Below, one piece after another: positions 1,622 to 47,590 of a stretch of 64,000 nucleotides of DNA; within the stretch, counting starts at the first letter, position 1; each line of letters opens with the position of its first letter. The notes beneath the pieces were generated by a model. The model saw only the letters and a list, made by a program, of their open reading frames with translations, ran no database searches and was not told where the DNA came from. The stretch comes from Psammoneis japonica (Eukaryota), in the NCBI GenBank assembly GCA_008632985.1, contig QPGO01000093.1, positions 62,001-126,000 on the forward strand, in the 5' to 3' direction. A program made the translations under genes and the position numbers.

Positions 1622-3629
1622 TGTTATTAATGATGGCTTGAGTGGTCGAACCATATTACGACGTAGAGTAGAAATAATTGAGATACGAATGTAAACATGC
1701 CTTATAGACTGGCGGCTCTAATAATATACCGGCACCTAGATGCAGCACCATGCAATGTAAAATGACTGAAGATTCTACCAGCTGCTAGTGTGGCACCGTC
1801 AAGTAACGACACAAAGCATGATGAATCTAATCTGATTGGCGTTCTTCACAAGCCAGGGAACCCGAAAGTCTTCTCTAGTAGCCACTGCTAGAGCTGCAGC
1901 TGGCTAGCTAGATCTCAGAGGAAGCTTACGCTTTCACGTGGAAAGCAAATCTTGCTCGCGGCCCAAATGTCCTCAATCATTGTTCTTGAGCATCAGTGAC
2001 AACCTGGGTCTGTCTTGGTCATGAGGATCGTCAATGTTGGACATTCCGCAACAGTTGATGCCCGACTTTGCTCAGACAGCTGACACCATTCTCATTTCTG
2101 GACATTGGATGGATGACAACATGACACAATCTGCTGGAGCTTTGCAATTTGTGCATGGCATCAGAAGCCGCAACACAGTGGTTTCCACTTTCCTTTGTAA
2201 ATTTTTTAATGTGCATTGTCAAAATTGTTAACAAGCAACATTTGAAAACTGCCGGCAACAGTGCTCAACAAATTGCAGTTGTTTTTTGTGTTTCATCTTA
2301 TGTCTCGTTAACTTTTCTTGCACAAGCTTCAATCAAATGCGTGCAATGTTTAGTTCAATTGGAGTTGACATTTGTGTTTTGTGATGCACAGTTTGGTTTC
2401 CTTTTGATGGTCATCAATTTGAACTTGGTTTCCTCTTTGGCCCTCCTGCTCAACTCACGTGCGTGTGTTTGCACGTGTGCAGTCTACTTCATGCACACAC
2501 TTGACCCACCCTCCATTTCAAATTCCTCTTCATGCTTCCCAGATTTTTGCAGCCCACTGGTCTACGGGGTTTTCAGTGTTTTTTCACATGAGGCACACCC
2601 TCTCCCCAAAAGTCAAAAAGCAAGACCGTGCACTGTTGTGATTCACATGGATTCTATGTTTGGTCACAAATCTGCAAATTGACAGCCGGCCATGGCGGTG
2701 AAAGACTTCACCCCATTGGCCAATGACAGCAACTCAACGCATGGTGAAACCTGCTGTCCTTCTGGTTGGTCAAGACAGGTTTTGATTCTGGCACAGCTTG
2801 ACTTTCGTGACCGCAAGTGTGCTGTCACGAATCTGCCGCATCCAGAATGCTGAGCTGCTGGCGTGTTGTTGTTGTGTGCGTGCACATCACAAACTTGCTT
2901 TTCTGCAGCATTGGCACAATCGTGTGTCAGAGTTTTGCACCCAGAAGTCCAGAATCATTGTGAGTCACCACAAATGACACTCTTCAAACAAGGCATGTGC
3001 AAAAACAGGTTCACAGGTTTTTGATGCATTTGCCAAAACAATGCATCCGTCTTCTCCAATTTCTGTGTCCAGATCCAGAAAGACTGCAGGCAGTGCTTGT
3101 TCCTGCAGCTCTCAGAATCACACGCATGAAAAGTTCTTTGCCACGCATTGCACTCTTCAAAAAAGGCATGCACAAAAAGAGCTTCATTTGGTTTTTGATG
3201 TGTTCACTTGTGTTGCATCCGTCTTCTCCAATTTTTGTCCAGATCCAGAAAGACTGCAGAGGTGGAGAGTGGGGAGGCAACCCATTGGAGGTTGCCTGAG
3301 TTTTTTGGCTCATTTTGAAAGGCTTCCCAAGTCTCTTTGCCATTTCTGGTCCATGCTCTAAACATGCCATTGATGAATCATCTGCAGCATGGGAGGTGCG
3401 GGGCAAACTTGGTCATTGCCATCATGTGACTTTGTCGTTCGCACAGCACCTTGTGCAGTGTGGCGCACATGCAGGTGGTGCTTGTTCCCTTGGCCTTTCC
3501 AGTGAGTGCATTCTGTGACACTTGAGATGTTTTCTGCTTGATCACATGTTTTCTTTCTGTGTTTTCTTTGAGCTGCAGGGGTGGAGCTGGGTGCTTGACG
3601 TCTTGCACCACATGCCGGTGTCCATGTTG

Positions 3630-4080
3630 CTCCAGAATCAGCGGTGCCGGATGCACCAGCAAGTGTGTGTTGCCGCTCATGTTGGTTCATCCATGTTGCA
3701 CTGTCACAATGTGCTCTGTGCTTTTTGGCAATGAATGAGGTGGATCAGAGCAAGAGCACTTCTGCTGCAAACTCACCTGCTCCAGAATCAGTGGCATCAG
3801 ATGCACTGGCAAGTCCATGTTGCTGTTCCCATGGGTCATGTTGGTTCATCTGTGTCACACTCTCACAATGTGTTCCACTCTTTTTGGCAATGAATGAGGT
3901 GGAATGGAGCAGCAGCACTTCAAATGATGGAGCAGCAGCTCCTGCCACAAACTCACCTGTTCCAGAGTCAGTGGTGCCGGATGCACCGGCAAGTCCATGT
4001 TGTCGTTCCTGTTGGCAGCGTTGGTTCACCTGCACTGCATGCACTCTCACAATGCATTCTACACTTTTTTTGCAATGAAC
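3630..4080 (+). repeat. Three diverged tandem copies (~150-180 bp) of an exon+intron-like unit
   Basis: Unit tccaga(a/g)tcag(c/t)gg..gatgcac..gcaagt...ttggttca...cacaatg...ttttt(g)gcaatgaa starts at ~3631, ~3781 and ~3962. Confidence 0.8.
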
Positions 4081-5919
4081 AAGGTGGCTGCCAGCAGCGG
4101 CACTTCAAAAAAGCAAGCTGCCACTGCTGCTGCAAACTTTGGGTGTTGTCACAATCAGCGTCATTTGGTTTCAATGCAAACAACAAAGTGGAGTGTTTGT
4201 GGCACAATGCAAATGATTCTAATTTGCAGGTTTTGTGGGGACAGAGGGTGGGCACTCTCACAGGGAAAATGTGCCCCTGTTTCACAGTGAAACATGTTTT
4301 CCTCATGGGGAGGGGGCTCTGATCTCTGATCCCACAGCACATTTTCATCTGTCACAGCTGACATGTCATTGCCAGCTGCACAACTGTCAAGGTTTGAAAC
4401 AATGGAATTTTGCACTGTGACAGACAAAAAAATGACTGTGAGAAAGGTGGTCTGGATCATCACTGCAATGTGTGCTCTGATGGAGAACAAAGTCATTCAA
4501 TTGATGTCTCCAGCTGATGCATGGGCCCTTTCAAACTGCCAACATCTTTTTTGTGGGATGCCCATCTTGAGCCATCTGTCGCCAACCAGCTTCAAGTTGT
4601 TGGAGTCTGGATCAACCCCTGGGCATTTTGGAAAGTGCACAGTGCTGAGCTGATGATGCTCAGATTGAACACAAGACACACATGGCTCTCCATTGGGAGC
4701 ACTTTTCATGGGGCCTTTGGGCGCTGCATTTGTGTTGCTCCAGCTGCTCGGCTCAAAATGTTGCAAAAAAAGAGCAAAAAACATGGAGGTCAAAGATGTG
4801 CTGTGCCACGCACATGGTTCTTTTTGAGTGGCAGTGCTTCTGCTCCAGGCACCTGACAAGAAGAAAAAGATCTCCCATCTCAACAGACATTTGCAGGCTT
4901 GACAGGCATGTGCCCAGAGGACGGTCTTCAATCTGGGCACGTTTTGTCTCAAAATTGTCACATCGCTGTTGACACGCACCAACTGGTGCTGCCAGCAAAA
5001 TGACAAAAAGACAGGGTTGTCAACCATGAGCACTTGGCTGAGTTGCTGAGGTTGTCCAGCCATCACAGAGCAGGGTTGTGAAAACAACAAGTCCAAAATT
5101 TTGTGTCCAAGAGAAGCCACCCCCAAAATTCTTGAAGAGCCGAATGCGCTGAACATTGTCGCGCCAGTCTGCTGTCATCTTGGCAGACCCTGAGCAAGAT
5201 TGCAGGTTTGCAGATTTGGTGTCTGTGACAACTTGCGCCAAGAACTCTGCCCTGTGTTGTTTTTTTGCTTTTTGCTTGCTTGTTTCTGCAGGGCAAGTTT
5301 TTTGTGACACTTGGTTTTTCATCAACTTAAACCAATTTCAAAGAAGGTTCTGGCATCTGGCCAAACAAGTTGTTGCAAGCGGCAACATGTGTGCACAGCA
5401 ACAGACAGGGTCTTTCCTCTTTGCACACTGAAAAGCCATTGCCTCTTTGCACACCAAAGAGCCATTGTTTTGATGTGTGCAGCCACCAGCACCCAATGCA
5501 CAAAAACTGCAGAGAGTCATGCACTGTGGGCTCTTCTTCCACCACGGAGGCCTGTGACTGACATGCCTGAAATGATGGGCCAATCAAAAAGCATTCACAG
5601 AAACAAAGAGGCCAAGAGAGCAGGATCAAGTTGCAAGTGGTGCGCATGCAACAGACAAGATCTTTCATCTCCCCCCTCTTTGCCGTGCAAGAAATTTTAA
5701 TGAGGGCATGTGTTGTGCCATGCGGCATGCATCCAGCATGCTGCAGGGCCCTGCACACTGTGCAGTGCCACGCAGGCTCTTTGGAAAGGCCGCTCGACAG
5801 GCCTGAATTGAGCCTCAAAATGCGTTCACACAAAAAAGGCCAAGAGCGGAAAGATCCATTCATTGTTTGCCATTTTGGATTTGCGCATCGCTTTTGATTG
5901 TTGGACTTGGCTTGTGACA

Positions 5920-6946
5920 ATGCCAAGCAAAGGAAAGAAAGGAGGCAAGAAGGGTGGCAAGAAGGCGGCAAGAAGGGAGGTTCCAGTGCCGAGACTGCCG
6001 GTGCCAATGCTGTTGCTGTGAAAACCTTTGACCATGAGGGCGATGTTCCTCTGATTTCCGTCACAATCCCATCAGGTTTCTTGGGCAGTGGCAAGACTGC
6101 CCTTCTCAAGACAATTTTGGAGCCCAACGAGCACAGGCTTAGAATTGCCATCATTGTCAATGACATGGCCGAGTTGGACATTGATGCTTCCCTTGCAGTG
6201 CAGCAACAACTTGTCCAGACGGAACGCCAAGCAATCAGTTTGCAAATGGGTGCATTTGCTGTGCTTTGCGGGGTGATTTGATTGTGAAGTGGCTCACATC
6301 CGTCATGACTCTGCCAGTGCTTTTGATTGCCGGCACATCGTGATTGAGTCAACTGGTGTTGCTGAGCTGCAACAAGTCACACAAGCCTTTTGTTTTTGTC
6401 CAAATGCGGCGCAGCTGGCAGAATCCCCAGAACAAATGCTCTGGACCTAAGCCCGATTAGATGTGTGTGTCACTGTGATTGATGCCCATTCCTTTCTGGC
6501 CCACATGGCTGCTCTCTGACAATTTGGAGATGCGCACACGGATGGACTGGATGCAACCACTCCAGAAGGTGCGCAGGAAGGGGAGAAACCAATTGCTTCC
6601 CTGCTCATGGATCAAGTGGAATTTGCCAATGTGACTCCATTGAACAAGATTGATCTCGTTGATTCACCGGAGGAGCTGGAAGAAACGAAGCAAGTGATGT
6701 CAGCTCTCAATCCCGCCACCAAGATTGTCACTGTGGAACGCTGCAAGCTGGATTCATTGAACGAAGTGTTGGGTGCAACCATGTTTGACACTGTGGACAA
6801 AGACAATCAATCACCTGGATGGTTGCTGGGATTGTGAAAGACTGAAGATGAAGACCAACATGCCAGTGAAGTGGATGAGTGTGGTGCATCCTCTTGTGTC
6901 TGTCGGGCCCGTGCACCCTTTCATCCCAATCAAATTGCCAAATGGG
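5920..6946 (+). pseudogene. COG0523/CobW-family (Zng1-like) GTPase metallochaperone pseudogene, copy 1; interrupted at ~6946 and resuming at ~14281-14430
   Basis: GFLGSGKT, IVNDMAELDID, IESTG, DQVEFAN..LNKIDL and RAR.PFHP motifs with frameshifts and stops. Segment 14281-14430 aligns to copy 2 at 16265-16420. Confidence 0.9.
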
Positions 6947-7389
6947 GCCTGTTCCAGCTCCAGGTGCTCCGCGTGGGTTCGATTCCCATCATTGGCCAAT
7001 TTTTAGGTTTAGCGCAAATAACTTTTTCAAAATCCGTTTTTTGCCAAATCGAAGGGTGAGTGTACACTTTACATGTGTTTCCGGGTGTACACTTACCTTT
7101 CGATTTTCGAAATGATCAAAAATGAAGGACTCAATTGTGCTAAATGTGATTTTCGGCTGGTGTCCCATTCTACGTGAAAAATGCTCGTGATCACTCCACT
7201 TTTTCATTTTTCGGAGCTCGTGTGTTTGGTCTTCTTCAACTCAACTGACGTCCGAACACACCTCATTTCTACAGACACAACACAGTTAATTTGATTGAGC
7301 GCGCCAAAAAAATGTGTCCTCTCGACTTGCCATCCGTCTCATCCACCAGCCCTCTCGATGCACACTTTCAATCAAATTTCCAGTGCCCC

Positions 7390-10300
7390 ATGGTCAACAA
7401 GAGGAAGAAGCAAAATGGAGTTGGCCATCGACACAAGTCAGGGACTGGCAACAGCAAAAACAAGAAGCCTCGTCGTGAACTTGAAACACACTCCACGGTC
7501 TCTGACCATGTCGTTGCTGCAGCTGAAGCAGCTGCAGCCACTCCCTTCAATCCGAGCAACCCGAGCTCTGCTGCCTCCGTCACTCCCTCCGTTGCTCCCA
7601 CCGACCTGGCTGCTTTCAACCCGAACCCCTCCACAGAACACCTCGCTCATTGTCCAGTGTCTTCCTTGCCAAGACCTCCAGGCCCCTCCCAAATGCACAC
7701 TGCAGGAGCGGCCGCCACTCCCTCCAACCCTGACTCTGACAATGCTGCCGTCACTCCCTCCGTTGCTCCCACCAACCTGGCTGCTTTCAACCCAAACACC
7801 TCCAAGGAACACCCCACTCATTGTGCAGGTCGTCCTTGCCAAGACCACCAGGCCCCTCCCAAATGCACACTGCAGGAGCGGCCGCCACTCCCTCCAACCC
7901 TGACTCTGACAATGCCGCAGTCACTCCCTCCATTGCTCCCACCGACCTGGCTGCTTTCAACCCAAACACCTCCAAGGAACACCCCACTCATTGTCCAGGG
8001 TTGTCCTTGCCAAGACAGCCAGGCCCCTCCCAAATGCACGCTGCAGGGAGCGGCCGCCACTCCCTCCAACCCCAACTCTGACAATGCCGCCGTCACTCCC
8101 TCTGTCGCTTCAGCCAACCGAACTGCTGTCAACCTCACCGCCTCCCAAGGTTGCCCCACTTTTGATCCTCATGCATTCGAAGCAACCCACAAAGATCCCC
8201 AACAGGCACTTTGTTGTGCAGCGGTCAAAGTGAGAGAAGGAGTGTTGTCTTGCACCGCCACTCAAGAACAACAAATCTGTGCGTTTGTGCATGCTTTGCA
8301 TTTTCCCGAAATGGCCCCATTTCTTGGATTTGAACATGCACGTGATGCCAATGGCAAGACCCTCATTGGTGACACGATGTTTTGATTTTTGATTCCCAAG
8401 CAGTGTCGAAAAATGAACGCAAGTCAATGCAGCATGTGTCAATGCAGCGATTGCACCAACGCCAATTTTCTACAAGATGCATTGAACAGGTTTTGAAGGA
8501 AGCTTTTAAAAGAGATGGAGGTGGAGCAAAATTGGTTGAAGCTTGTGAGTGAGAATCCTGAGAACTTGGAGAACCATGACAGTGCCCTTGGCAAATTGGA
8601 GGAAACAATGTGTGTCTGTCAAGAGGAAGCGTTTGGCCCCAACGGCCATCACCTTCATCCAAAGCCCAAGATGCAGTTGCAACCATCATTTGTGGCAATG
8701 TCAATGGTCAGGATCATCCTCATTGGAAATGCATTTTGGGTGAATGCGAGCATTGCCCATCCCATCCAACTCCATTGTTGGAACAGAGTGAAAGTCCCAG
8801 TGCGCCCCAAGTTTTGTTTCAACGTTGCTTGACTGTAAAAAGTTGTTCCAAGCATGGTGTGTGCATGGAAGCATGTCCTGTTTGTGAGGCAGATCCAGAT
8901 GGGAACAAGGACACAAAGGTGAAACGTAGGACCTTGTTGACAAGGTTCCGAAAACCAGTCGGTGTCTTTACAAAAGAGCACTGCATTCCAAGTTTAGAGA
9001 AGCTCCACTGCCACCTTCCCCACGCAGTCATTCTTGGGAAAAATCATTGCATGGAAATGTGTTGCAAAGCATTTGAGTCAACACCCAACAGCCTGTTCAT
9101 GTCTCATGACTGCTCCGAGCATCAGAAGGCAGAGTTCAACCACCAAGTTCAGGGTGACCATTGTGGCAACAACCAAACATTGTCAATCGAAGGAAGAGTT
9201 TGCGATGCAATGGTTGACAACGAGCTTCAGAAAACACATCATGCGCATCTCTCTGACTCTTCCAAGCAAGATGCCACCACCACCAACGCTCACTTGGAAA
9301 AGTTTGTCACCTGGTTAAAAAACCGACCTGCGCAAGGCGTGGCTTGTGATTTGGGATCACACTGATGGTTGTGCCAAACAATGCCGATGTGCTTTGGCAC
9401 TGCACTTGTTGTCTGTCTTTGTGCACAAATGCAACATTGTGTTTGACCGCCATTGGAGCACCTGGACATGGCAAAGGAGAGGTTGATGGCATTGGAGCCT
9501 ACATTGAATCACTCATGCGTCGAGAAATGCAGTCCACAACTGTTGCAGGAGTCAATGACAAGGATGGGAAAATTAGACCTGAAGCTTTGGTCATGGATGA
9601 CAACAGTGTTGCAGCCGCACACAGTTGTGCAAAGGAATGTTGCAAAATGGTCACAAAGAACAAGAATGCTTTCGGCGCAGTTGGCGACAGAAAACATGCC
9701 AAGAGGGAATCCCTTTGAAAGTCAACACAAAGGGTGTGTCATCTGCAGGAAGCTGACGAAGTTCTTGGCTCTTCAATCAAAGTCAAGTTGATTGGATTGG
9801 TGCAAGTGCACACATGCCATTGTGGCATTGGAGCCTTGCACCATTTCCGATTTGAACCTCTTTTCCCCATTGGTTGGGTTGCAATGCAAAGAATTCCTTG
9901 TGCTTGTGAAGCCTGCCTGGATCAGCTGAAACGGCCTTGGGTTAAAAATGTTGAGCCAACAGAGCAGCCATGACATGCAGGTGGCAACCCGAGCTTGCAA
10001 ACTGTGGCCCATCTTTGAGCGACTGAACGATTGGCAAGTGTGTCAGGTGATTCAAACAGACAAGAGTGATGCCGACGAGGTGCAGTTGGTTCACAAATCT
10101 GTGCTGGACTCCCCAACTGAGGAAATGGCCAAGGAAATTGTTCCAAACAGCCATGCCGCATTGTCTTGTGAACTGAGGAGGGATTCTGTCTGCTGCAATG
10201 GGATGAACTCCCCCACAAAGCACAGGAGGACGAGGTTTGGAAAGAGTTTGACCCACCCACAACTGTTGAGGCCGGTGAATGGGTTTGCAAGGGAACGTGT

Positions 10301-10680
10301 CTCAACCCTGTTCCACGGGCCAGAGGATGGCACACTCCCGGTGATGCTGAGGAATGCAAGACAAGAGTGTTGCTCAAGCAAATTACAGTTGCCAACATTG
10401 AGCTCAATGAACCATCAGCCAATCTGGAACTGCCAAGTGCGTGCAACAGGAATGAGGCTTCACTTCTTCATCCACGTCATTTGAGTGATGACGAGCATGA
10501 AGGAATTCTGGATGCCATCCGACAGCGGGAGGCAATGGATCATTTTGAGGACTGTTCAGACGAGGTGGAGGAACAAGACATGAAACTGGTGAGTGGGAGG
10601 GAGAGAATGACGACATGGAAGACACTGTGGAGGATGATGAGAGCATGGCAGGGGACAGTGACAGTGACAATTCGGACAAA
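7390..10680 (+). pseudogene. DDD/E-type transposase relic (unclassified, Sola-like motif set)
   Basis: Broken frames give D(C/Y)SE..AEFNHQVQGDH, HLSDSSKQD, WDHTDGCAKQ(C/Y)RCA (9352-9393), GAPGHGKGEVDGIG and a C-terminal RIPCACEAC, followed by an acidic tail. Superfamily assignment is tentative. Confidence 0.7.
7537..8110 (+). repeat. ~171-bp tandem repeat, about 3.3 copies, in the Pro/Ala/Thr-rich N-terminus of the transposase relic
   Basis: gccactccct(t/c)caa...gtcactccctc...ctggctgctttcaaccc...ggcccctcccaaatgcac recurs at ~7537, 7714, 7884 and 8056. Confidence 0.9.
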
Positions 10681-10699
10681 TGAAATGGCAATGTTGTGC

Positions 10700-13600
10700 A
10701 ACTAGATCAACCATCCAACACAAAAGCTTTCCTTTTTGCGTGCAACTTCTGCTGCACGCCCTGGGAAGTTCGAACTGGTGCACCATGAACACTTGTTGCA
10801 GACGCTTTTTTGCCACGCATTTCACCTCATGTTCCTCATTCCCAAGACACCAATTGAAACACTTGATGTCCTTTGCTGGCAATGCAAAAGGGTGGTTGGA
10901 ATCAAAGATCCATCCACGGTGCAAGGCAATGGAGTGGTTGTTCACAAGACGGCACAAAGTCATGAAGTCATCATTGCAGGTTGCCATGTCAAATTCACCA
11001 CCTGCTGCAAGGGAAATTGTTCGATCCACACTGTTGCAAAACTTCATGTTTGAGTTCTTGGGCGGGAATTTTCCCTTCAAACGACCGTTCAACATGTTCT
11101 TTGCAAACAACATGCGCTTGTTGTTAGTGCCAGCACAGTTGGCAGATGTTTGAATGTGAGAAGCAATGCAGTCTCTCATTTCCACATGCCAGCACAATCA
11201 AGAACACTGGCCAGGGAGGAAAAAACGCAAGTGTCGTTTTGTCCTTGCAGGAATTTTGCAGGTGGACCACTTGTCGGCAAGTTGCTGTTCGATGGCATCA
11301 ACACGGTTCCTTCCAGCAAGGAGTGACAACCATCTGATGGCTTCAATTCTTTCAAATCTTTCCACACATCTGGAAACCAAAACTGAAATTGCACTCAGCC
11401 CAATCCAGGGTCACACACATGGGACGGTTCCCCTCCAAGCTGCAGCCAATGAAATCAGCTCCCCGCCCAACAGGTGGAAGTTTTTGAATCTCCGCTTCAG
11501 TCAATCTCTTCAGTTTGGCAATCTGTGGCGGGTTGCAAATCGATTCCACCTTGCTCTTAATCTCGTCCCTGCATTTTCGATTGAGTTGCTGGGGAACGTT
11601 TGGTTTGTGTTTGGCACGTAAAATGAGGCCCGCACACGTGTTCATGGGATGGCCGTTCATTTCATTGTGTCGCGTGTCAAACCATGGTTCCCACAACATG
11701 ACGCCCTTGTTTTTCCCTTCAAAGCAACCAAACAAGTGAGGAACGTCTCCTTTGGAATTGCCAGGATGCTGATGCCTGCTGTTCCATTTACTTGGATCAA
11801 TCCAAATGAGTTTTTTAACCTGCAACATCACTTGAGCATCTTCGTGCTCACGCTTGAGTCGATCCCTTTCTTGTTGGTGTTGCTGCACTTTGGTCAACCA
11901 ACACCATGAAGTGTCTCCTTTTGCCCTTGGTTTCGGGACAGAGCTACGAAGGCCAATGAGATCCTCATCCTTGTGCAATCCAGTTGTTAATTTCAAGGTC
12001 TCATGCGAACGTTGCATCCAGCGTCTCCCACTGTCTCCCGCTTCTCTTCTGCAGCCGGGGCTTTCTTCCTCTTGTCTCTTGCAGCCTTGGCTTTCTCCCT
12101 CTTCTCTTGAGCTGCCTTGGCTTTCTCCCTCTTCTCTTCAGCAGTCTCAGATTTCTCCCTCTTCTCTTCTGCAGCAGCAGAAACTTCTTCCTTGTGTTCA
12201 TCGTCCTCCTCGTCCTCAGTTGCCTCTGGATCTTGCTCCTCCTGGATTTCGTCTTGCACACCATCATCTTCCTCCTCTTCCTCAGCCGATTGATCCATGG
12301 CCCCATCTTCCTCCTCTTCCTCAGCCGATTGATCCATGGCCCCATCTTCCTCCTCCTGGTTTTTGTCTCGCAGTTGCAACCTTGCAGTGCCAGCCTCGGC
12401 CTTTTGTGGTCATCCGTCTCTTCAGTGCCCTCCTTCCCCTCTTCCTCTTCCTCCTCCTCCTCCTCCACCTCTTCCTTCAACCCTGCATCACGGGCACTGG
12501 CGTGATGCATGCAACGATGGCAACGAATCCTTCTGCAAAACTTGCACCATGCAAGTCCAGGAGCTGCCTTGCACCAATCAGCAAGGTGAGCGAGCGGCTC
12601 TTTGAAATGATCCTTCCTGCTTGGTCGGCAGGGAAGTGAACTTCAACCATTTGTTTGTCTTCAGTGATGGCCTTCACTAACTCGGAGTGTCGTTGCGGCT
12701 TGAAAGGCTTGCACCACTGGTCCGGTGGACAAGTGGTGCCTCTGCATTCACCATCAGAGGCAACCTGCAATGCATGGTTGTACCACCAACCCACAATGAT
12801 GTCAAACAAGGCCTTGGATGGCAGTCTGTCATCGGGGTCGAATGGCCCAAATGAGAAAATCCTCCAGCAGCCACTCATGCAACTCATGAGCACATTGCAT
12901 GGTGCGTTGGTGGGAAGTTTGGGAACGCAGGGATCTTCCTGCATGTCATCATCCAACTGTTCAAGCTTCTCCCTTTTGTGATGCTCGTCATGAAAAACAT
13001 GATCGTCACTGTGATCCACAATGGGCTTCTTCAACTTCTTATAGCTGATGCGTGGTTTTCGACGCAGCTTTTTGTCCACCTGCTTCCTCTGAGCGATTTC
13101 GTTTGGAACAGAGCGATGGTTGCAGATTGAACCCCAGTGCTGTTTTGCAGATGGAAAGGGATGTCTTGTTTCACATTTGAACTTGACGTCCAACCCCTTC
13201 AAAGCCATGCATTTCAAAACTGTTCTTCACCCCCTTTGGAGACTTAATTCGCCGCCAACTTTGAAACACGACCTCGCCAAAAGGCAGCCACGCATGCATC
13301 TTTAAATCTTTGGTCGACTTTTCGTCATCGTGCGTTTCTAGGTTTTGAATGTTGACCAAAGATGCCAAGTGGAATCGGCGCTTGGCAATGCATGAATGAT
13401 CAGCAATGCATCCTCCTTCAACAAGCGGTTCGTCCCAACAGTCTTCATCCTTGCGGATCTCTGTTGCAACGTTCTGATGCTTGGCACTGGAATGAGGCAA
13501 TGCCAAAACAATTGCAGAGCTCATTGGAGTAATCCTCTCCTTTGCACACAGGGCAACAGTGTTGCCTTGATCATTCATCATGAGATCACCCCAGTCCCAG

Positions 13601-14205
13601 TGCTTGCGGACGTCCGCCAGATCAGAACGATCACTCATGGTGTCCGTGGTGTCCTCAAAACCCATCACTCCCATGCAATGAGACTTCAAAGTCTTCTGAC
13701 AATGAAGACATGCATCCATCTTCTTGACAACACCATGGCAAATGGCTTGGGCAAGTCCAGTCAAAAAAGGACATGCACCTCGACTCAACGGCACGATCGA
13801 TTGACTCTCATCGCCCGTCCCAACTGACACAACCGGAGACTCCGTCACACGGACACAATCAACAAGCAGGCCAATGTTTGTCTTGACACGGTGCATCAAA
13901 ACAGCAGCAACATTTTGCTTGTCCTTCACGGCGTCCCTCATCAACATTCCTGATGGCACCACAACCAACATCAAGAGGTGCTGGTTCTTGTCCTTGATGT
14001 GTTGGTTTAGTTGCGGTCGATTCTCGGAGTTAAATTTTTCACAAAACCAATCGACAACAGTGCTGCGGAATGTGTTCCGTGTTTTGGCACTGTTGACCCA
14101 TCCAAACCATTCTTGTGATGAAGAACATGAAAGAGAGGGCTCATCTTCTTTGTTCCACGATCTTCTGTGGTCAAGATGCTCAAATCTACAAGACCTTGAG
14201 GGCAC
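10700..14205 (-). pseudogene. Transposon cargo gene relic: GNAT-like region, Glu/Lys-rich repeats, C-terminal papain-like peptidase region
   Basis: 13600-13950: VAAVLM..LLVD(C/Y)VRV..RG..L..LAQ..LHCQKTLKS..MGF. 12000-12480: acidic 30- and 42-bp repeats. 10800-11260: QGQNDTCVFSSLAS..NHSIAL.RGWIFDSN. Motif recognition only. Confidence 0.5.
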
Positions 14206-14439
14206 TCAAGGGGATCAACTGCATCTTGGAGAGGCACAGTGCACCAAGTTTTGGCTTCACCCTGCGGCGGGTGATGTTCCGCAGCACGCCAATCCCAGTC
14301 AAGTGGATCCAAAGCGCAAGCACATGATCGAAAACCATTTCAACATTTTGCACTCCAAAGGGTTCTGTTGCAAGCAAACGTTCTTGCATGTGTTGTTTGT
14401 GCACAAGCTGATGGATGCTTTTTCTCACATTTTTTCAAA

Positions 14440-15200
14440 ATGTTGTGTGTCCAGCCACCAAGAGATGCCATTCCCAACAAACTTGAGGAGTCAAACATGC
14501 AAACATTGTGCCAGTTTGCTGTCTTCACAGGCCCTGAGCAAGATTGTGAGTTTGCAGATTTGGCATCCCCAACAACTTGCCAAACACCTTGATCCATGTG
14601 TCATCTTTTTGCTTTGCTTGTTTTTCTGCGGGGCAAGCTGTTTGTGACACTTGATTTTTCATCAACTTTGACCAACTTCAAAGTTCCTGGCATCCAGTCC
14701 AGCAAGCTGCAAGTGACATGCATGTGCAGCAGCAGAAGGGATTTTCTTTTCCTGCACACTGAAGCCCAATGTGCGCACATTGTAGAGTGCACACGGGCTC
14801 TTCTTCTGCAGAGGCCAGGCCTGTGACATGCCCAAATTGGGCCTGATCAAAAGACATTCACAGAAATGAAAAGGCCAAGAGAGCAGAACAAAGTTGCAAG
14901 TGGTGTGCATGAAACAGACTGGATCATTCATCTTCCCTCTTCACTGAACGGGAATTTTTCTTTTGATGACATGATGTGAGTGCAGCATGCAGCCAGCATG
15001 CTCTGCGGGTGCTGCACTGGCGTGATGCACAGGCTCTTTTTCACAAGGGCCTCAACAGGCCTGAATTGGGCCTCAAAAGACATTCCCAGAAAGGCCAAGA
15101 ACATGTGAAGATTGAAGATCTGTTCTGATCTGGACTCACACTCTAGTTCATTGTTTGTTTGCCATTTTGGATTTGCACATCACTTTGTTTTGATTGGAAT
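14440..15200 (+). repeat. Diverged duplicate of 5100-5900 (segment upstream of each CobW copy)
   Basis: Shared ccctgagcaagattg..tttgcagatttgg, ggcctgtgac, ggccaagagagcag and ttgccattttggatttgc in the same order. Confidence 0.85.
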
Positions 15201-15207
15201 TTTAGCA

Positions 15208-16830
15208 GTGCCAAGCAAAGGAAAGAAAGGAAGCAAGAAGGGCAGCAAGAAGGGAGGTTCCAGTGCCAAGACTTCCAATGCTGTGGCTGTCAAAACCAAA
15301 GCCCATGAGGGTGGTGACATGCCTCCGATCCTGTCACAATCTCATCAGGTTTCTTGGGCAGTGGCAAGACTGCACTTCTCAAGAACACTTTGGGGTCCAA
15401 CGAGCACAAGCTCAGAATTGCCGTCATTGTCAATGACATGGCCGAGTTGAACATTGATGCTTCCCTTGTGGTGCAGCAACAACTTGTCCAGATGGAAGCA
15501 ATGCCAAGTTGTCAGTTTGCAGATGGGTGCATTTGCTGCACTTTGCAGGGCAATTTGATTCACGAAGTGGCTCGCATCTGTTGTGACTCTGCCAGCACTT
15601 CTGACAGCATCATGATTGAATCAACCAGCATTGCCAAACTGCAACAAGTTGCACAAGCCTTTTGTTTTAATCCAAGTGCTGCACAACTTGCGCAATCCCC
15701 AGAACAAATGCTCTGGACCCAAGCCCAATTGGACACCTGTGTCACTGTGATTGATGCCCATTCATTTCCGGTCCACATGGCCACTCTCCAAAAATTTGGC
15801 AATGCGCACATGCATGGATTGGATGCAACCACTCCAGAAGGTGCACAGGACGGGAAGAACCAGTTGCTTTTCTGCCAAATGGATCAAGTGGAATTGCCAA
15901 TGTTGCTCCATTGAACAAGATCAATCTCTCATTGATTTGCTGGAGGAGCTGGAAGAAATGAAACAAGTGATCTCAAGCCTCAATCCCACAGCCAAGATTG
16001 CAGCCGCGGAATGCTGCAAGCTGGACATTCATGGAATGAAGTGTTGGGTGCAACCATGTTTGACATGGACAAAGACAATCAATCACCTGGATGGTTGCTG
16101 GAATTGGAAGAGAATGAAGAAGAAGGCCACCACACTGGTGAAGTGGATGAATGTGGTGCATCCTCCTGTGTCTGTTGAGCCCATGCACCCTTTCATCCCA
16201 ATCAAATTGCCAAATGGGCAGCCTCCTGCTTGTGCTTTGAAGCAAATGGAGGGGTTTGTCCAAGGAGCAGCGCGCCAATCCCAGTCAAGCGGATCCAAAG
16301 CAAAAGCACATGATGGAAAAGTGTGGCAACATTTTGTGTGCCAAAGGATTCTGTTGTGAGCAAAACGTTCATGTGCAATGTTTGTGCACGAGCTGATGAA
16401 TGCTTTTTCTCACATTTTTTCACATTTTCAGGGCTGCATGTTGGATCATGGTTCCTTCATGATTGGTTTGGCTCAATCAGGCTAGACAGGATCTTTGTTG
16501 CCACTCATGCCATGGCATGTCATTGTGTCAGAAATGCACTGGGGTGTTCCATCTGATTTGGAAGATCATGCAATCATCAAATCCAAGTTTGCCAAACCCC
16601 GTGGAGATTGTTGACAAGAATTGGTGTTTGCAGGCACCAACCTCAAAACACAAAATGTCAAGGCTGATTTGGACAAGTGCCTCTTCACCAAACAAGAGTT
16701 GGAAAATTGCGCATTTTGCTGTGATTGGGCTTCTCTTGAAAAGCAGAGTCATGCACCGCATTGTGGAGGATGCCAAGTGGAGCAGCAGTTCAATGCCACA
16801 GGGCAACAAATGTGTGACAATCACCTTTTC
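15208..16830 (+). pseudogene. COG0523/CobW-family pseudogene, copy 2, with intron relic 16356-16431
   Basis: GSGKTALL, IVNDMAELNID, DGCICCTLQG, IESTS, KGFC|WL across the intron, and GD..QELVF.G..DLDKCL; multiple frameshifts. Confidence 0.9.
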
Positions 16831-19800
16831 GCATTGTTGTTTCTTTGAATGGATGCATTTTCAAAATCTCTTAATTTTCTTCTGCTTGTGGATTCCACGT
16901 TGTCAGCAAAAACCACTCTTTGAGGCTGCTGGATGGTGTGCTGCAGCTGAGGAGAAAAAATTGTTTGCCCAATCAACAAGTTGCACTTGCAAACTGTGTG
17001 CATCTGGCTGCATGTTGTGTGGTGCCACTGCTTGTCACACATGCCTGCACCATCCATGCTGGGGTTGAAATGGCTTGTGTGGGCTCAACCTCTCTGCATC
17101 TTGTGGCACTCAGTTCATTGCCAGCATCCTGGGTGTGGCTCAACAACAGCCACACAACAGAAGGGAAGTCAAAGACACAAACAACCACTGTTTCAAATGT
17201 CAGTCATCAGCTGCAGTTGCTGCTGGAATCAAGCACCAATGAGGCTTGGTGCTTTTTCCTTGAAAAAACATTGTCAACAATTGTGGCAAAAAGCTGGCCA
17301 CTGCCCTGCCATTCAAGGTCAGCATGTTTGGTGCTCATCATTGCAAGAGCTTGATTGTTTCCTGAAGTGTGGCTGATTGATCACTCATCAAAACTGTGCA
17401 AAAAGGGAAGCACAACCATGATTGTCAAGCCACACTGCATCTGGACACACTGCACAGTGAAGAGCAGCTGAGATCATCCTTCACCTTGCTGTTCTCTGTT
17501 GGCTCTGCTGTCACAACCACAATTTTGCATTCTTGCTCACTCTCTAGATGTGGGGCCAGCATGCACCAATGAAAACATGCATCTGGTGGGGAGCTGCTGC
17601 ACCAGTGTTGTTCACAACAGGGCAACAATGCCAAAATGAGCTCCTCCTCAGATGGCAGAGAATTTGTCTCATCACTGGACTTGGCGCCAGGCTTGGCAAA
17701 GGCAGGGTCAGCAGCAGTCTGAGATGGAGGCCTGGGTGGCATGCCAGAGCAAGGATCAGCTGCAGTGACAAGATGTTCACATCTGGTTGTTCCATTTTTG
17801 AGTGGTTTGTTAATGTGATCTGCACTTGTCCTTGTGACAAGGGCAAAAACCCTTGGTGATGGTGTGCTTGCACACAGTCTTTGGCAAAAACAAACAGCCT
17901 GCCAAACTCAATCACCATGGCTGGCTTGCTGAGATCTGTTTGTTGGTTGCATCCACAAGGATCATCAGCCAGAAACTCCTTCAGCTTTGGTTGTTTGTTG
18001 TCCTCAGGTGAGAGTTCTTTGGAGCAACGGTGCAGGAACAGCAGCCACAGCCTTTGGGTTGTGGCTGCTTTTGTGTCAGACTTTTTTCTTCTCAGCTTGA
18101 CATTTTGCACACTTTGGGCTTTGGATCATTTGCCCAGCAGCTGTCAGCACTGCAAGAGCAGAGTGCACCCTTTCCCACAGTCTTGGAAGCACTGTCACTC
18201 TGTGGGAGCTTGGCACCAGAAAGACCTGGCCAGCTCTTGTTGTTGGCAACAAGATTCTAGCACTTCTGTTGGGTGCTGTGAGAGCATGGCATGTGCAATC
18301 AGACCCAGATCACCACAGTCACCACCCCCAGGGCAAGCAAAACAGGACAAGCAAAATGGTGTTTGCACCCCCCTGCTGTGACGGCATCCAATGTGGAAAA
18401 GATGAAACAGCTTGGCACCTGGCTGGGCATCTTGGTGACAGTCCAATGGGGGGGTTGGGCATCATTGAGACTGGAAGTGCTCACGCTGTTTGAGGTGTCA
18501 TGCTTGATGAGACAAAGTGCTTTGGCCACAAACTTGGCAATGTCCTGACTGGCACAGGAGTCAAGACCTGAAGCTTGGAAATCTTCAAGAGCTTGGCTGA
18601 CACTGCAGATGGTGGGCATGCTGCATGTCTTGATCACCACAATGAAAAGTGTTCAGCCTGGACATTCTTGTTGATGGTGGAGCTTTTGCTTGTGCCCACA
18701 TTTGGTTGCTGTCTCTTGTGGAGCTGACAAGCAAGAAAGACAAGATTTGACAATGAGGCCGTCAGCTGGGTGACATCAGGCTTGCAATCCTTGTGTGCCA
18801 AGAGCTTGGCAGCAGCACTCCTGCACAATGTTTGCAACCTCCTGGACAGCAAAGCTGCGAAGGTGAGCAGAGAGGAGTTGAACAACAAAGGAGCTGATGT
18901 GGAAACCCCTTGCAAGTTGGCCCTTGTCCAGCTCCTCCTCACTGGTCTGGCCTTGCTCTTTGGCAGCCCCCCCCAGCTCCAATCTGCTGCCAAACTTGAC
19001 AATGTCAGTGCCATTGTGAGCATCTTGGAGATTCCACTCAATGTGTGGCAGCACCTTCTTGTCATGAGATTGACTGGCAGAATGGCAGGACTGTGTCATT
19101 TTTGGCTTGCAGCCATCATTGAGTGGTGACCCCCCAACCCCACATGGTGATCACACTTGGGACAGGAGAGCCCACCATGCTTGAAGTGACAGCAAAGCAA
19201 GCCACACAAACAAGTGAAGAAGATGCTTGTTGGTGGTGGACAGAAGGACTCAGAAACTCCTCAACAGCATGCTTCCAGCAGTGGAAAAAACAGCGCACTG
19301 TGCAAAATTGGGGCTTGCACAGCAAAGACATGGTGGCACAGCTTCATGAAGCAAGGGTGGCTGCTCAAGGTTGCAAGCCAGTGCTGATGTTGATGCAAAA
19401 GCAGCTTTTGTCAAAGCAGTTTTGGCTGCAATCTGAGCTGGATTTCTGTGCCAAAATGGTGCAGTGGCCATTTGCTCAACACAGACTTTGTCAAAATTGT
19501 GTTCACGAAGCAACGTCATCTGTCACAGAGATCATGCAGGGGCTGGTGCCAAAAAGTGATGACACACACATTGTCTGTGACTCACCTTGTTTGTGAAAGA
19601 CTCTTCATTGCACTTGTCTCCCAATCTTGGTTGGCATTTTTCTTGCTTTGGGACTTTCAGACAAAGCAGTGGATCAGCATGAAGAGCAGAGCCACCAAGA
19701 AACTCAAAGAAGTGACCAACAAAGGAAAATGCTTTGTGCAACAGTCATTTGCGTCTTGGAGTTGCACAAGAAATCATTGTTCTGTCTCTGCCATTGTTCA

Positions 19801-20124
19801 CTCCTCCTTTCATGAAACAAACTAAGCTCATGAATTTGGTTGCACACACCAAAGTCACTTCCTTCACAATGTCCCATGAGGCAAACATTGCATTCACACA
19901 TTGGGAGCCACAGTTTTGCCAGGAACTTCACAGACCTTGGCACTCTCTTCACTGTCCAGCTCCACACACAAATCAACCAGCAATGCCAGAGCAAGAATGA
20001 CATTGTGTGGCATCCCCTTTGCACATGCTGTCTCATTGGCGAAGCAGACAAAAGTGAGTGCTCGTCCATTTCTGAAGATGAGCAGCCTCTGCAAGACTGA
20101 ACAAATCAACCCAAACCTCCTGCC

Positions 20125-20460
20125 TCAAACAGCAACAAACCTTCCTTGTTGTGCACAGGTGCAGACTTTGGTGCTGCCCAAGAATTGACAAAATTGACAT
20201 GGGGTCCACAAATTTGCCACTCAACAGAAGCTGCAATGCCTGCACACATTTTCATCAAAAGCAAGCACCACTCGTTGTGGCCCACTTCCAGAGATGATCA
20301 CTTTGGCAATCTCTCATGTGGTGGCAACCCTCCCTTGTTGCATGTGGTTGCAAACTTTGGCGCTGCTCAAGAATTGACAAAATTGACATGGGGCCCACAA
20401 ACTTGCCGCTCAAGAGAAGCTGCAGCAGTGCACTGCACATGTTTGCATCAAAAGTGAGCA
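20125..20460 (+). repeat. ~195-bp diverged tandem duplication
   Basis: actttgg(t/c)gctgc(c/t)caagaattgacaaaattgacatgggg(t/c)ccacaaa at ~20165 and ~20354. Confidence 0.85.
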
Positions 20461-20689
20461 CAGCTCATTGCCCTCCACTTCCAGCACAATTTCTCATCCT
20501 TCCAATGATTTAAAAGGATTGCAGCCCCGCAAGTTGTGCACCATTTTGCAACAAATGGTTTCCAAATCTAAAACCTCACAATCCATTGCAATGATGGACA
20601 TCATGTCTGTGACCACTGATGCACCCTCATTTGACTCCAATTCATGGTCTGAAAACCAACCCCCTCACACCATGTTGGCCTGACAATTG

Positions 20690-21070
20690 GCTTCATCAAC
20701 AAGCATGAATGGCACATCAATGCCGACATCTCCCTGCAAGGAGCTTGCAGTGATTTGGAGTGGGCGGGAGATTTCCTTGTTGTCAGCCATGTCAATCACA
20801 CAGAGAACAGCTCTTTAGAGTTGGCTTGGCATTTGCAAATGTGTCTTTTTTTTAATTGACTGCCTTGGAGATGCTGGCAGCAAACATGACATTGTGGCCA
20901 AATGCAGAGGCAAAATGCCGTCATTGTTTTGGACAGACATGCTGCTTGAAAAACAATCTCCAAGAAGCTTGGCAATTGCTTGTTCCCCCAATGCAGCTGC
21001 AATGTGCAGTGAAAAGTTCGCACCTTGGTCAAATTGTGGACAATTGGTGGACACTTCCAAGCTGAGGAGC
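20690..21070 (-). pseudogene. Ankyrin-repeat gene relic
   Basis: DQGANFSLHIAAALGEQAIAKLL and QNNDGILPLHLA match ankyrin consensus G.TPLH.AA..G...V..LL. Confidence 0.65.
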
Positions 21071-22079
21071 TGTTCATGAGATCAGGAGTCAGGAGATGCC
21101 AGAGCACACACTGAGAGCTCAAGCAGTTGCTGCACTCCTGTCCTGACACAAGCCTGTGAAGAGCACACACACACACTGGTGGAGCCAAGCAACATGGTTT
21201 CTTGGTTGAGGCACGCAACTTTTCACAAGCATCTCAAGCTTGAGTTTCCTTGTTGCCATTTGGCACCTCCTCACCAGACACAAGTTTTCTGTGTGCATTT
21301 TCTTTTGTGGTGTCAAGGCCTTTTTCAACAACCAGCCTCCTGCAGGCAACAGCACAATCTTCTTTTTCAGATGCAAGCTTTGTTCCAGAGACCAGCATTC
21401 CACAGGCATTGTTTTCTTGGCCAGCCATGCCTTTCCCATCAACAAGTTGTCTGTCCATGTGCCGGCTGCCATTCTCTGAGCAAGTTGAAAAAATCATCAT
21501 TGTCCCCATCACTTTGTGCCCTCACAACAATGTTCGTTCAGCTGCTGAGCTGCTGGAAGCAAGTTTCTGTGTGCTGCAAAAGAGCACAATCTCTTTCTGG
21601 AGTTGCAAAAGCTTTGCTGGGCACCAACTTGCCACCACATGCCTTCTCTTCTGGCTTGGTTGTGGGCATCCCAGTTGTGATTTTTCAATGTGCAGTCACA
21701 GTGTTTTGCTCATCATTCTTCATCAGCATGAGCTTTCTAAATGCAACCTCCTCTTTGTTGGTCAATGGCTTGCTGAAAACCATCTTGTGGTGTGCTGAAG
21801 CAGCTCTGACATCTCTCTGCCAAGAGACATTTTTTTTCTGAAAGCAATGGATTCAAGGAGTTGTTGGAAGCTTTTTGGCACTGTCATTGAGAAGATTGAC
21901 TGCAGTTGTTGTTTGAGAAAAGACTGGGAATTGTGGAGTGGGAGAGTCAGGGAGAACAAAATCAGAGTGGGGCATGTGCAGCAGAGAGCAGCAGAGGGGT
22001 GAAAGACAGAGAAGAAAGAGGGGCCCCGGAAGTGCGGAGAGATGGAGGGGCAGAAGTCATGGGGGGCTGAGCTGGGAAG

Positions 22080-22440
22080 GATTGAAAGGTGGTGAGATGG
22101 TTGGACCGGGCTGAGGGCTGGAGGTGCAGCGAGAGGAGCCAAATCAGAAGTCAGGGGAGAGATGCTGCCGTGCAACATTGGCTTGGGAGAGAAGGTTGAT
22201 CGGGGAGAGATGGGGAATTTGGCAGGCAGAAAAAGCAGCTTCAGAGTTTGAAAAGTCAGTGGGGTTGTTCTGCCACCGACCTGCCCAAGGGGGCTTGGGG
22301 GGAGGAGGTGGGATGGAAGAGGAAGTGTCCTTGGAGGAGCAGCAGAAAAAGGCGCGGAAGTGGTGTCCAATGCCGCCAAGGTGGTCAAGGGGAAAAGGTA
22401 GAAGGAAGAGGCCTGATTCATTAATGGAAGAAATGACGGA
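22080..22440 (-). mobile_element. Possible 3' fragment of a non-LTR retrotransposon ORF
   Basis: Reverse frame reads LFLLPFPLDHLGGIGHHFRAF..PPPPKPPW..FGSS..TSSP, reminiscent of RLE-type element C-termini; weak. Confidence 0.3.
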
Positions 22441-26059: not shown

Positions 26060-26111
26060 TGGGGACAATTGAACAAAGCGTTCGATGAGTTCTATGATTA
26101 TCATTTGCTCT

Positions 26112-28949: not shown

Positions 28950-30365
28950 CTCTGCATGTGGTGGTGTCGGTGGGCGGGATGGACCATGCTCAACTTGGAT
29001 GAGCGGTTGTTGACACAACATGGAAGTTCCCATGCTACCCCACAAAAGAACTCTGGAATGTTTAGTTTGTGTAGAAGCAGCACCCAGGGCCTGTGGAAAT
29101 GCCAAAAAGTGCGGAACGTCGTGATTTTTTGATGTCCCTGGTGCTGACTCTGCGCACTGGATTCTGCGCAGCTTCTGCGCGCTCCAGACTTTTTTTGCAT
29201 TTATCTTGGGAGCCCGGCACTGCTTCCACACAAGAAATTTGACATTCCAAAGTTTTTTTGAGCTGTGGCATGGACAGACCCAATGACAACTTAGCTTCAT
29301 TCATTCAAAAGACTTCCCCAAGAAGTTTTCAGCAAGGAAATTTTTGTGTGCATGACACTTGTCTTCTCTGTCATGCTCTTGCAATGGGGGGCACTGGCAC
29401 ACACAAGCCACCAGGCCAGAAACGATTCTCACCAAATGTGTGCACAAGTTTGCACACTCACAAAGCTGCCTCTTTCTTGTCTTTTGGCAGTCGCTGGCTC
29501 ATTTTTTGCCTCCTGACAATTTTCTTGCTGCAGAGCTCGCGTGCGAAATTCCATGAGCCCAATGTCACATGGAGACCAAGCTGAGCTGTGCATGCCAAGG
29601 GCTGGATTGTGCTGCAAACTGTCTTGCGCACATGCGGACAACAACAAACAACAACTTGTGTGCCTCTCCAGCCAGCATGAGATGAAGAGCCAACAACAAG
29701 AAGCTCTCCTTTGGGCCACTGGGGGGCAGGAGGAGCGCCCCCACTGTTTGTGCTCCCATGGCTCCCATCAGCCATCACCTTGGCAGCAGCAGAGCAAAAA
29801 GGGGTTGCACAAAAGCACAAGCCAGGGTGATCAAAAATGTGAGAGAGCTGAGTGCTCTCCAGCACCTTTGCATGCAAGCAGCAAGCAAGTGTGCGCACGT
29901 GACCAGGCTGGGCAAAAATGTTTTTTCGCAGCTGGCACGCACAAGCCAACATCATCACAGCAACAATTTGTGGGTGCAAGCAGCTTGATTTGCCAATGAC
30001 AACACACACTTGCCATGTTCTGCTTCTGGACACAAGCTCATGTGCAGCTGCCAAGATCCCCCAGGTGCAGAGCTGCTGCTGCTCTCGGCTTTTCTGTGCA
30101 CAGCTCCCTGGCACCGTTTGACAAAACCGCCCATGTTGAGTCCAATTTTTTCTGTCAACCATGTGGATCACACAAAGATGCGGTGCTCAGTGAAAACTTG
30201 ATTGACAGCACAATGATGATGACATGGATGCTGCTTGTGACCATTGAGCGTGACAATGGTGAGATGCCGGCGAATCAGTCATCGACTGAAGACGATCAAG
30301 ATGACCCCACGAGACCGTGAAGATGACTTTCAAACGACCCTGCAGATGACCCGATTGACATTCTC
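28950..30365. mobile_element. Hypermutated insertion relic (block 2) between the two peptidase paralogs
   Basis: No TA found between 29294 and 30365; no counterpart upstream of the second paralog; no intact ORF. Confidence 0.7.
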
Positions 30366-47200: not shown

Positions 47201-47590
47201 ACGACGACTGCTGTTGCTCTTGCTGACAAAACCCTCTGTCAGCATCCAGGTGCTTCCCTGACCATGATGCACTCAGTGCCCAGGCAAAACTTTCAACCCA
47301 TCCCCAACTCACCCTCTGTGTGTTTGTGTCCACCCTGCTGACCCTCATGTGCAGGCTGGCCAGCTCAAAAATGTGGCCACATCGTGCTCTCATGCTCCGC
47401 ACCTCTGCCCCGACCCCCAGCAGGGCTTGCTGCGGGGCCTTGGCCTCTCAATCACCAGTCACCAAGTCTCTTGCCGACCAGCTGTCCAGTCATTCATCCA
47501 AACTTCAAGCTCAGCTCTCTAGGGCCCTGCCCCTTCTCCAAGCGGCACATCCGTTTCCCTCTCTGCATGAGGGCCACAAGAAGCTGCCAC
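44210..47590. mobile_element. Hypermutated block 3 (unidentified element relics)
   Basis: Strong TA/CG depletion and broken Cys/His-rich frames; right end homologous to 62140-62230. Confidence 0.75.
45289..45750 (+). repeat. 240-bp tandem duplication
   Basis: gtcacttc at 45291 and 45531; shared cttttgtccttgcca, cttcactctttgtggtg, ctgttgcggcccttttcagcaag and gcttttctgcacaaga. Confidence 0.9.

Follow-up and report, generated by a model that had tools for sequence, protein, structure and literature searches.

Residual TpA sites in a TpA-depleted block of diatom DNA point to a T-A-pyrimidine preference of the mutating process

What has erased almost every TpA from some 20 kb of a diatom contig, and do the few TpAs left behind reveal what the process prefers? 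We examined a window of 64,000 nucleotides from Psammoneis japonica (GenBank assembly GCA_008632985.1, contig QPGO01000093.1, positions 62,001 to 126,000, forward strand; coordinates below are those of the window). Its gene-dense parts encode ordinary eukaryotic enzymes, and an argininosuccinate synthase open reading frame (ORF) shares 84-90% identity with proteins from Bacillariaceae, Cylindrotheca, Pseudo-nitzschia and Nitzschia; therefore, the window belongs to the nuclear DNA of some pennate diatom. Four blocks, 0.7-20.5 kb long, stand out (Table 1), in which TpA is nearly absent, CpG is reduced and CpA/TpG occurs at about twice its usual frequency, with G+C content unchanged. In the largest, the main block, observed/expected (O/E) ratios are 0.05 for TA, 0.31 for CG and 1.75 for CA/TG, compared to 0.57, 1.00 and 1.15 outside the blocks. 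Its edges are sharp, with no TA in 1928-2197 or 21751-22398 and TA O/E values of 1.1 and 0.79 just outside. A first-pass annotation, made from the sequence alone, had recognized this depletion but drew it too narrowly, at 2190-21750. The reading that we favor, with a probability of about 0.75, is that the residual TpAs are slow-reacting survivors of a TpA-specific, DNA-level A:T>G:C hypermutation that acted on both strands of a putatively silent 20.5-kb island.

The residual sites were counted over 2190-21750 minus 6946-7290 and compared with an outside-block reference of 37,389 nt. Only 62 TpAs are left in the main block, where approximately 720-770 would be expected. Grouped by flanking purine (R) or pyrimidine (Y), they comprise 41 YTAR, 13 YTAY, 7 RTAR and a single RTAY, compared to 241, 385, 430 and 441, respectively, for the 1497 TpAs outside the blocks; the binomial probability of at least 41 YTAR among 62, given an outside share of 0.161, is 1.5e-18. 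The first-pass annotation had described the residual TpAs as mostly YTAR with almost no RTAY, and rightly so: the eight YTAR examples that it quoted are present in the sequence, as is its GTAC at 12780/12781. Since transitions leave the purine/pyrimidine class of a flank intact, each flanked YR step provides, through its R/Y pattern, a transition-invariant baseline. On this baseline, TpA survival is 0.33 for YTAR, 0.066 for YTAY, 0.033 for RTAR and 0.004 for RTAY (chi2 107, p = 4e-23). Therefore, the comparison of all 16 NTAN tetramers inside and outside the blocks that the annotation had proposed gives a survival that is far from uniform after correction for composition. There is also an enrichment of A at +2 among surviving half-sites overall (p = 7e-10), which we regard as tentative because it is not seen within YTAR alone (p = 0.15).

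It could be argued that the YTAR excess reflects the original make-up of the block, or TpAs created since, and implies no preference of any mutator. The baselines do mispredict GpA and GpG, one residual TpA (15668) is demonstrably new, and outside DNA that is not in ORFs has twice the YTAR density of ORFs. However, the excess persists when the baseline is outside DNA not in long ORFs, with odds ratios of 4.5 in the multi-copy part of the block and 77 in the single-depth part (14674-22000 and 4669-6945 pooled), where YTAR accounts for 22 of 42 and 19 of 20 residual TpAs, respectively. The invariant baseline still gives an 80-fold span of survival across flank classes. New TpAs drawn from the TGN pool of the block (TGC 646, TGT 521, TGA 423, TGG 476) would favor TAC and TAT, the opposite of what is found, and an outgroup comparison, described below, displays the losses directly. 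We therefore consider an origin in ancestral or new TpAs very unlikely. The three small blocks, pooled, hold 11 YTAR, 13 mixed-class and 3 RTAY sites (n = 27), a weaker YTAR excess (p = 0.002).

The gradation among flank classes is what would be expected if every TpA presented two targets, the A on each strand. A Poisson model in which the two are lost independently, at a rate set solely by the 3' neighbor, fits the 16 tetramers (deviance 10.1, 12 degrees of freedom) and outperforms a uniform rate (likelihood-ratio test 104.6, p = 1.6e-22). The loss rates are 3.49 before T, 2.08 before C, 0.79 before G and 0.28 before A. With flanks reduced to R or Y, survival per strand comes to 0.58 (TAR) and 0.085 (TAY), which corresponds to rates that differ 4.5-fold, and the model predicts 1.7 RTAY survivors where one is observed. 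Under the proposed hypermutation, the likelihood of A>G would thus be set by the 3' base in the order T > C >> G >= A, TAY reacting on each strand at about 4.5 times the rate of TAR. RTAY sites, which present a fast target on either strand, would vanish; YTAY and RTAR would almost always become YTGY and RCAR; and YTAR, slow on both strands, would make up the bulk of the remainder. CpGs in the island would meanwhile turn into TpG or CpA with little dependence on their flanks.

Survival by itself does not reveal whether the A>G change takes place at TAY or at RTA, so lines of evidence on polarity were needed. Two CobW-family pseudogenes in the main block were compared with 40 CobW homologs as the outgroup, which provided 342 conserved columns and 63 single-step polarized changes, including 20 transversions. 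Twelve of the 14 A>G changes lie at TpA and one at ApA, and all 12 of the former are followed at +1 by a pyrimidine, C in seven cases and T in five; three T>C changes lie at TpA, and 12 of the 16 G>A changes lie at CpG. At 47 conserved Thr/Ile/Met columns, all ten codons that now follow a T start with G, with no such case at the 19 Asn/Lys columns. At six conserved Tyr columns, the residue is now Cys in four cases, His in one (after G, an RTAY site), Ser in one and Tyr in none. A comparison of paralogs agrees: in the pair within the block, concordant YTGY and RCAR outnumber YCAY and RTGR by 78:41 (p = 0.0009), compared to 60:61 in an unmutated control pair (26081-28694 and 31019-33374). CpG losses, polarized directly in paralogs and tandem copies, lack that bias (11:18), and the block-wide excess of YTGY/RCAR (523 vs. 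216 by hand count, with the same pattern under the invariant baseline) must therefore stem mainly from TpA. All three mixed-class TpA losses that could be polarized directly are in the predicted direction. These observations support a polarity of A>G at TAY, which is T>C at RTA on the opposite strand, as the first-pass annotation had suggested.

In double-stranded DNA these two descriptions are the identical change, and no result here separates them. The primary event might thus be T>C at A/G-T-A rather than deamination of adenine, either because oxidation of the thymine of RTA creates a G-pairing base or because an error-prone polymerase misinserts G opposite T while repairing silent chromatin. 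To our knowledge, TAT is not the context of any natural tRNA adenosine deaminase, which counts for such a T-directed chemistry, but we also know of no T-directed process that is limited to TpA, which counts against it. The sole directly observed case is that of the chlorarachniophyte Bigelowiella natans, whose authors favor adenine deamination in the main text of their preprint, a chemistry that is likewise unproven there (Mettrop et al., bioRxiv 10.64898/2026.01.13.699255). On balance we consider a T-directed origin unlikely.

Gains of TG and of CA are positive in all 13 sub-windows of the main block (totals of 833 and 998, respectively), and both strands were therefore targeted. Together with the census and the polarized changes, this demonstrates depletion, context dependence, polarity and action on both strands. 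Locally, in 7291-9290, 13291-15290 and 19291-21750, the CA gain is 2-3 times the TG gain, the other sub-windows being balanced; this product skew could come from strand-asymmetric action or from a local R/Y skew. The same strand data bear on RNA-level A-to-I editing of retroelement transcripts, fixed by reverse transcription. Editing enzymes that prefer U before A exist, and the block is partly multi-copy, as such a route would have it. However, the strands are about equally affected in every sub-window, the single-depth pseudogenes derived from a cellular gene are affected to the same extent, as is the intervening DNA, the 319 ORFs surveyed lack a reverse transcriptase or other transposable element (TE) domain, and the edges of the block are chromosomal and sharp. 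An RNA-level origin is, in our judgment, highly improbable.

We assign an equally small chance to error-prone synthesis of the DNA polymerase eta (Pol eta) type, with its A>G changes at WA, while a silent region is being repaired. Pol eta yields A>G at TA, as seen here, but its signature at AA is missing: AA/TT stands at 1.03 and AT at 0.90 of their frequencies outside the blocks, AG/CT is not depleted, and the 14 polarized A>G changes include 12 at TpA and only one at ApA. In the in-block paralog pair, A/G differences after A amount to 0.104, vs. 0.079 in the control pair, a relative rise no greater than that after G. The first-pass annotation had likewise set the pattern apart from that of Pol eta, and with just 2 of 14 polarized A>G changes falling outside TpA, we agree.

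Within YR steps, the invariant baseline gives changes of -709 for TA, -723 for CG and +1432 for CA+TG; this balance sums to zero by construction, and a length-scaled estimate gives a similar picture. TpA survival in the main block is 0.08, compared to 0.33 for CpG, and it coexists with a transversion divergence of 6.5% between the CobW paralogs. CpG survival is nearly flat across flank classes on the invariant baseline (0.27-0.40), and such flank-insensitive decay is expected because diatom repeats are CpG-methylated. A mild context dependence of CpG loss was nevertheless observed in the main block, TCG/CGA being lost fastest (per-strand rate 0.87 vs. 0.34-0.50). The other changes in the block, namely CpG transitions and transversions, are ordinary decay.

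Copy number over 2001-22000 was gauged by the summed depth of Logan contigs from a public run at a likeness of at least 90%. Depths of 420-6660 across 2001-4668 and 6670-14673 denote multi-copy families, whereas 4669-6669 and 14674-22000 lie at depths of 55-90. Since multi-copy and single-depth parts are both depleted, the depletion is not confined to repeats. A single contig of 10,481 nt covers 16189-22000 with 21 differing letters. A second run supplied no contigs for this region. The differences between the window and the contigs are chiefly CpG polymorphisms (25 of 40 among those listed, out of 224), which fits TpA having run out first. These contigs also bear on whether the pattern is a sequencing or assembly artifact, such as the miscalling of modified bases. 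The best-matching run may be the sample from which the window itself was assembled, and so it is not independent. However, its contigs reproduce the sequence at an even depth of approximately 55-60, the CobW copies also carry frameshifts and the 6.5% transversions, and the flank-graded losses obey the two-strand kinetic model. The block sequence is genuine, reproduced by separately built contigs even if the run proves to be its own source, and we regard an artifact as extremely improbable.

Several observations nevertheless weigh against the favored reading, or at least against its simplest form. In the main block and the other blocks, GpA/TpC is about 390 below, and GpG/CpC 147 to 426 above, every outside baseline, and the two-strand model predicts neither. 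A second flow, GA>GG, was considered as the source of this mismatch and rejected, as the in-block paralog pair has no surplus of A/G differences after G. Under every baseline, GpC is gained (+277 to +422) and ApT is lost (-65 to -258), which fits TAC>TGC and TAT>TGT, but the GpC gain is only moderate evidence because the baselines also mispredict some dinucleotides that should not change under the model. When product excess was regressed on the losses of TA and CG over 18 sub-windows, the two sources stayed inseparable (p 0.58 [0.20-0.91], q 0.81 [0.52-1.14]). The outgroup data are also small. The contrast between the Thr/Ile/Met and Asn/Lys columns (10/47 vs. 0/19) has a Fisher p of 0.052, and the TpA events fall at only seven homologous sites in the two paralogs, five of them common to both. 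At the other two, both RTAY contexts, one CobW copy has TG and the other CA, and the copies therefore mutated independently after duplication. The new TpA at 15668 was created by G>A, so at least one residual site is no survivor. In the small blocks, the 3' bases rank T > C > A > G, reversing the order of A and G relative to the main block. Finally, all three subsets have a YTAR survival of 0.32-0.35, while survival of mixed-class TpA and of CpG varies several-fold. A single-rate exponential does not explain this constancy, which suggests bursts of mutation or a resistant sub-context instead.

Table 1. Coordinates of the TpA-depleted blocks and of features within the main block
Feature	Position	Strand	Basis
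Main TpA- and CpG-depleted, CpA/TpG-enriched block	1928..22398		Per-kb TA O/E 0.01-0.19, CG 0.02-0.69, CA/TG 1.3-2.2
Second TpA-depleted block	29293..30365		1074-nt TA-free gap; kb 29001-30000 TA O/E 0.08, CG 0.33
Third TpA-depleted block	44210..48078		TA O/E 0.08-0.25
Fourth TpA-depleted block	62199..62872		675-nt TA-free gap; kb 62001-63000 TA O/E 0.14
Sole RTAY (GTAC) TpA remaining in main block outside spared insert	12781..12782		NTAN count
CobW/HypB/UreG-family pseudogene copy 1, truncated, three reading frames	5988..6945	+	tblastn high-scoring segment pairs in frames 3, 2, 1
CobW-family pseudogene copy 2, three frames, in-frame stops	15330..16737	+	Pfam PF02492 8.4e-31 on 15318-15911
Multi-copy repeat part	7337..14673		Summed contig depth 420-2890
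Multi-copy repeat part, second	2001-4668		Summed contig depth 1450-5220
Single-depth part, most heavily mutated	14674..22000		Depth 55-89; CG survival 0.11-0.28 with 4669-6945
Spared insert, normal TpA and CpG	6946..7290		11 TpA in 345 nt; truncates CobW copy 1

The main block holds few recognizable remains. A Pfam search of the 319 stop-to-stop ORFs of at least 55 aa in the blocks found only pieces of CobW above the curated cut-offs, and no viral, TE or reverse transcriptase domain. The first-pass annotation had presupposed a TE consensus against which mutations could be polarized; the block is indeed partly multi-copy, but with no TE domain among these ORFs, that premise is unsupported. Copy 1 of the CobW pseudogene matches PF02492 at 3.3e-14 on 5898-6278 and at 2.2e-05 on 6520-6834. 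Copy 2 gives tblastn segment pairs at 15330-16238 (frame 3), 16241-16354 (frame 2) and 16447-16737 (frame 1), and its region and 5107-6946 share 80% identity, differing by 237 transitions and 111 transversions; both copies are frameshifted. Searches for homologous proteins with the ORFs at 13174-14205 (minus strand) and 7249-8382 (plus strand) gave none at E<=0.01, the candidates having been limited to near-length proteins, and a protein atlas search with the latter ORF gave no usable match. That ORF spans one of several tandem repeats of approximately 150-225 nt found inside the depleted blocks (7523-8150, 3628-4138, 45283-45746 and 20136-20484). A scan for RNY periodicity as a trace of former reading frames lacked sensitivity: even the ligase gene that served as control scored only 0.27-0.32. 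For annotation, such blocks are a hazard, being poor in stop codons and rich in spurious long ORFs.

The spared insert, which interrupts the main block, either arrived after the hypermutation or is not subject to it. The bin that contains it (6670-7336) has a summed depth of 6664, the highest of the 20 kb, compared to approximately 60 in the single-depth parts. Eight loose contig ends lie at 6946, and the tblastn match to CobW ends at 6945. ARAGORN detected no tRNA in 6946-7290, an Rfam search of 6850-7400 at E<=1 returned only two chance-level hits, and Rfam gave no matches across the whole window.

Three further observations concern other parts of the window. The second block sits between the two copies of a gene pair encoding an M64-like peptidase and a CBM96 protein. 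An inverted repeat of 46 nt with 96% identity (60035-60080 and 60804-60849, 770 nt apart) lies in DNA of normal composition. A DNA ligase I homolog is spread over two overlapping frames, 49607-50827 and 50815-52605, probably owing to a short intron.

How does this process compare with known systems? Fungal repeat-induced point mutation (RIP) resembles it in being a transition hypermutation that is regional and saturating, has a favored dinucleotide, and inactivates repeats together with their contents. However, RIP converts CpA/TpG to TpA at C:G pairs, while here TpA is converted to CpA/TpG at A:T pairs. The RIP signature of C>T at CpA with an excess of TpA is absent, the block having a TpA O/E of 0.05 and a CpA/TpG O/E of 1.75. 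Single-depth DNA is also affected here, unlike in fungal RIP. In addition, the duplicated gene pair at 26081-28694 and 31019-33374 (M64-like peptidase and CBM96/PT-repeat protein, 2.6 kb, 84% identity) has normal TpA and CpG, and therefore duplication as such does not appear to be a trigger here, with the caveat that copy numbers are those of the present day. Diatoms are reported to have RID-related DNMT4 genes of unknown function in many species, and their TEs to be CpG-methylated by DNMT5a (PMC9998398). Decay of methylated CpG to TpG/CpA in the same blocks explains only half of the pattern, that of CpG, and the loss of TpA is faster and more complete.

The tRNA adenosine deaminases TadA and ADAT2-ADAT3, along with the DNA adenine base editors derived from TadA, offer another comparison. 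The natural site of TadA is UACG. The pattern in the main block resembles it in having T directly before the target A and in accepting C at +1, but here TAT is preferred over TAC (rates of 3.49 vs. 2.08), and G at +2 follows just one of the seven polarized TAC>TGC events. The first-pass annotation had judged the pattern closer to TadA than to Pol eta; the sequence preference and the distance from Pol eta hold up, but a TadA-like agent does not follow from them, and a TadA-type enzyme may serve as an analogy. ADAT2 enzymes can act on DNA, and amphioxus ADAT2 on E. coli DNA, the one profiled on DNA in that report, prefers GAA and hairpin loops (PMC10354150).

The closest parallel is B. natans. 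In mutation-accumulation lines of this alga, two silent integrated viral regions are reported to mutate at approximately 6e-7 per site per generation; among the 231 mutations, 230 were either A>G or T>C, every GC-biased one falling on TpA, and the genome contains 124 TpA-poor, CpA+TpG-rich clusters. The authors propose an ADAT2-like protein as the agent (Mettrop et al., bioRxiv 10.64898/2026.01.13.699255). The likeness is considerable, judging from the preprint's main text: TpA changes to TpG/CpA on both strands, in regions of kilobase scale, with long-term loss of TpA and gain of CpA+TpG; a single-copy target is possible; and many affected ORFs are degraded and unannotatable. The diatom block shares the A>G/T>C changes, the T before the mutated A (12 of 14) and the kilobase-scale TpA-poor, CpA+TpG-rich regions. 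The differences are also informative. The host is a stramenopile diatom instead of a rhizarian chlorarachniophyte, and the depletion is deeper, with a TA O/E of 0.03-0.08 compared to a Rho of 0.45 for the nucleocytoplasmic large DNA virus (NCLDV) region of B. natans and a cut-off of <=0.43 for its clusters. The targets in B. natans are viral insertions, whereas no viral or TE domain was recognizable among the 319 ORFs here. Events in B. natans arose de novo in the lines, while here they are known from their footprint in the sequence alone. CpG is co-depleted in the diatom block, and the main text of the preprint contains no flank analysis and does not use the terms CpG, flanking, trinucleotide or diatom; the pyrimidine preference at +1 is likewise a feature of this block that is not described there.

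By this comparison, the main block would be a near-saturated footprint, in a second lineage, of the kind of process seen in B. natans, with a pyrimidine at +1 as the new detail. The kind of process is thus already in print, in one preprint, while the context fingerprint is new; our literature searches (TpA hypermutation, RIP, TE mutation and dinucleotide depletion) turned up no account of it in diatoms. TpA-only hypermutation of silent DNA entered the literature no earlier than 2026, from a single rhizarian alga and, as far as the preprint's main text goes, with neither an identified enzyme nor a flank analysis. A saturated diatom example would mean that the process is not peculiar to one lineage and that it can remove more than 90% of TpA across 20 kb. 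The 3'-pyrimidine preference and the two-strand kinetics provide a testable fingerprint that can discriminate among candidate deaminases and that argues against a Pol eta-like origin. By analogy with the proposal for B. natans, we infer that the chemistry may be deamination of DNA adenine by a chromatin-targeted, sequence-selective enzyme. It is conceivable, although we offer this only as a speculation with the odds against it, that diatoms and chlorarachniophytes share a chromatin-targeted DNA adenine-deaminating defense, a form of RIP on adenine, that reads T-A-pyrimidine and erases TpA in silenced repeats, foreign DNA and trapped genes, beside the decay of methylated CpG. If so, the TAY fingerprint would be a handle to a natural eukaryotic DNA adenine deaminase.

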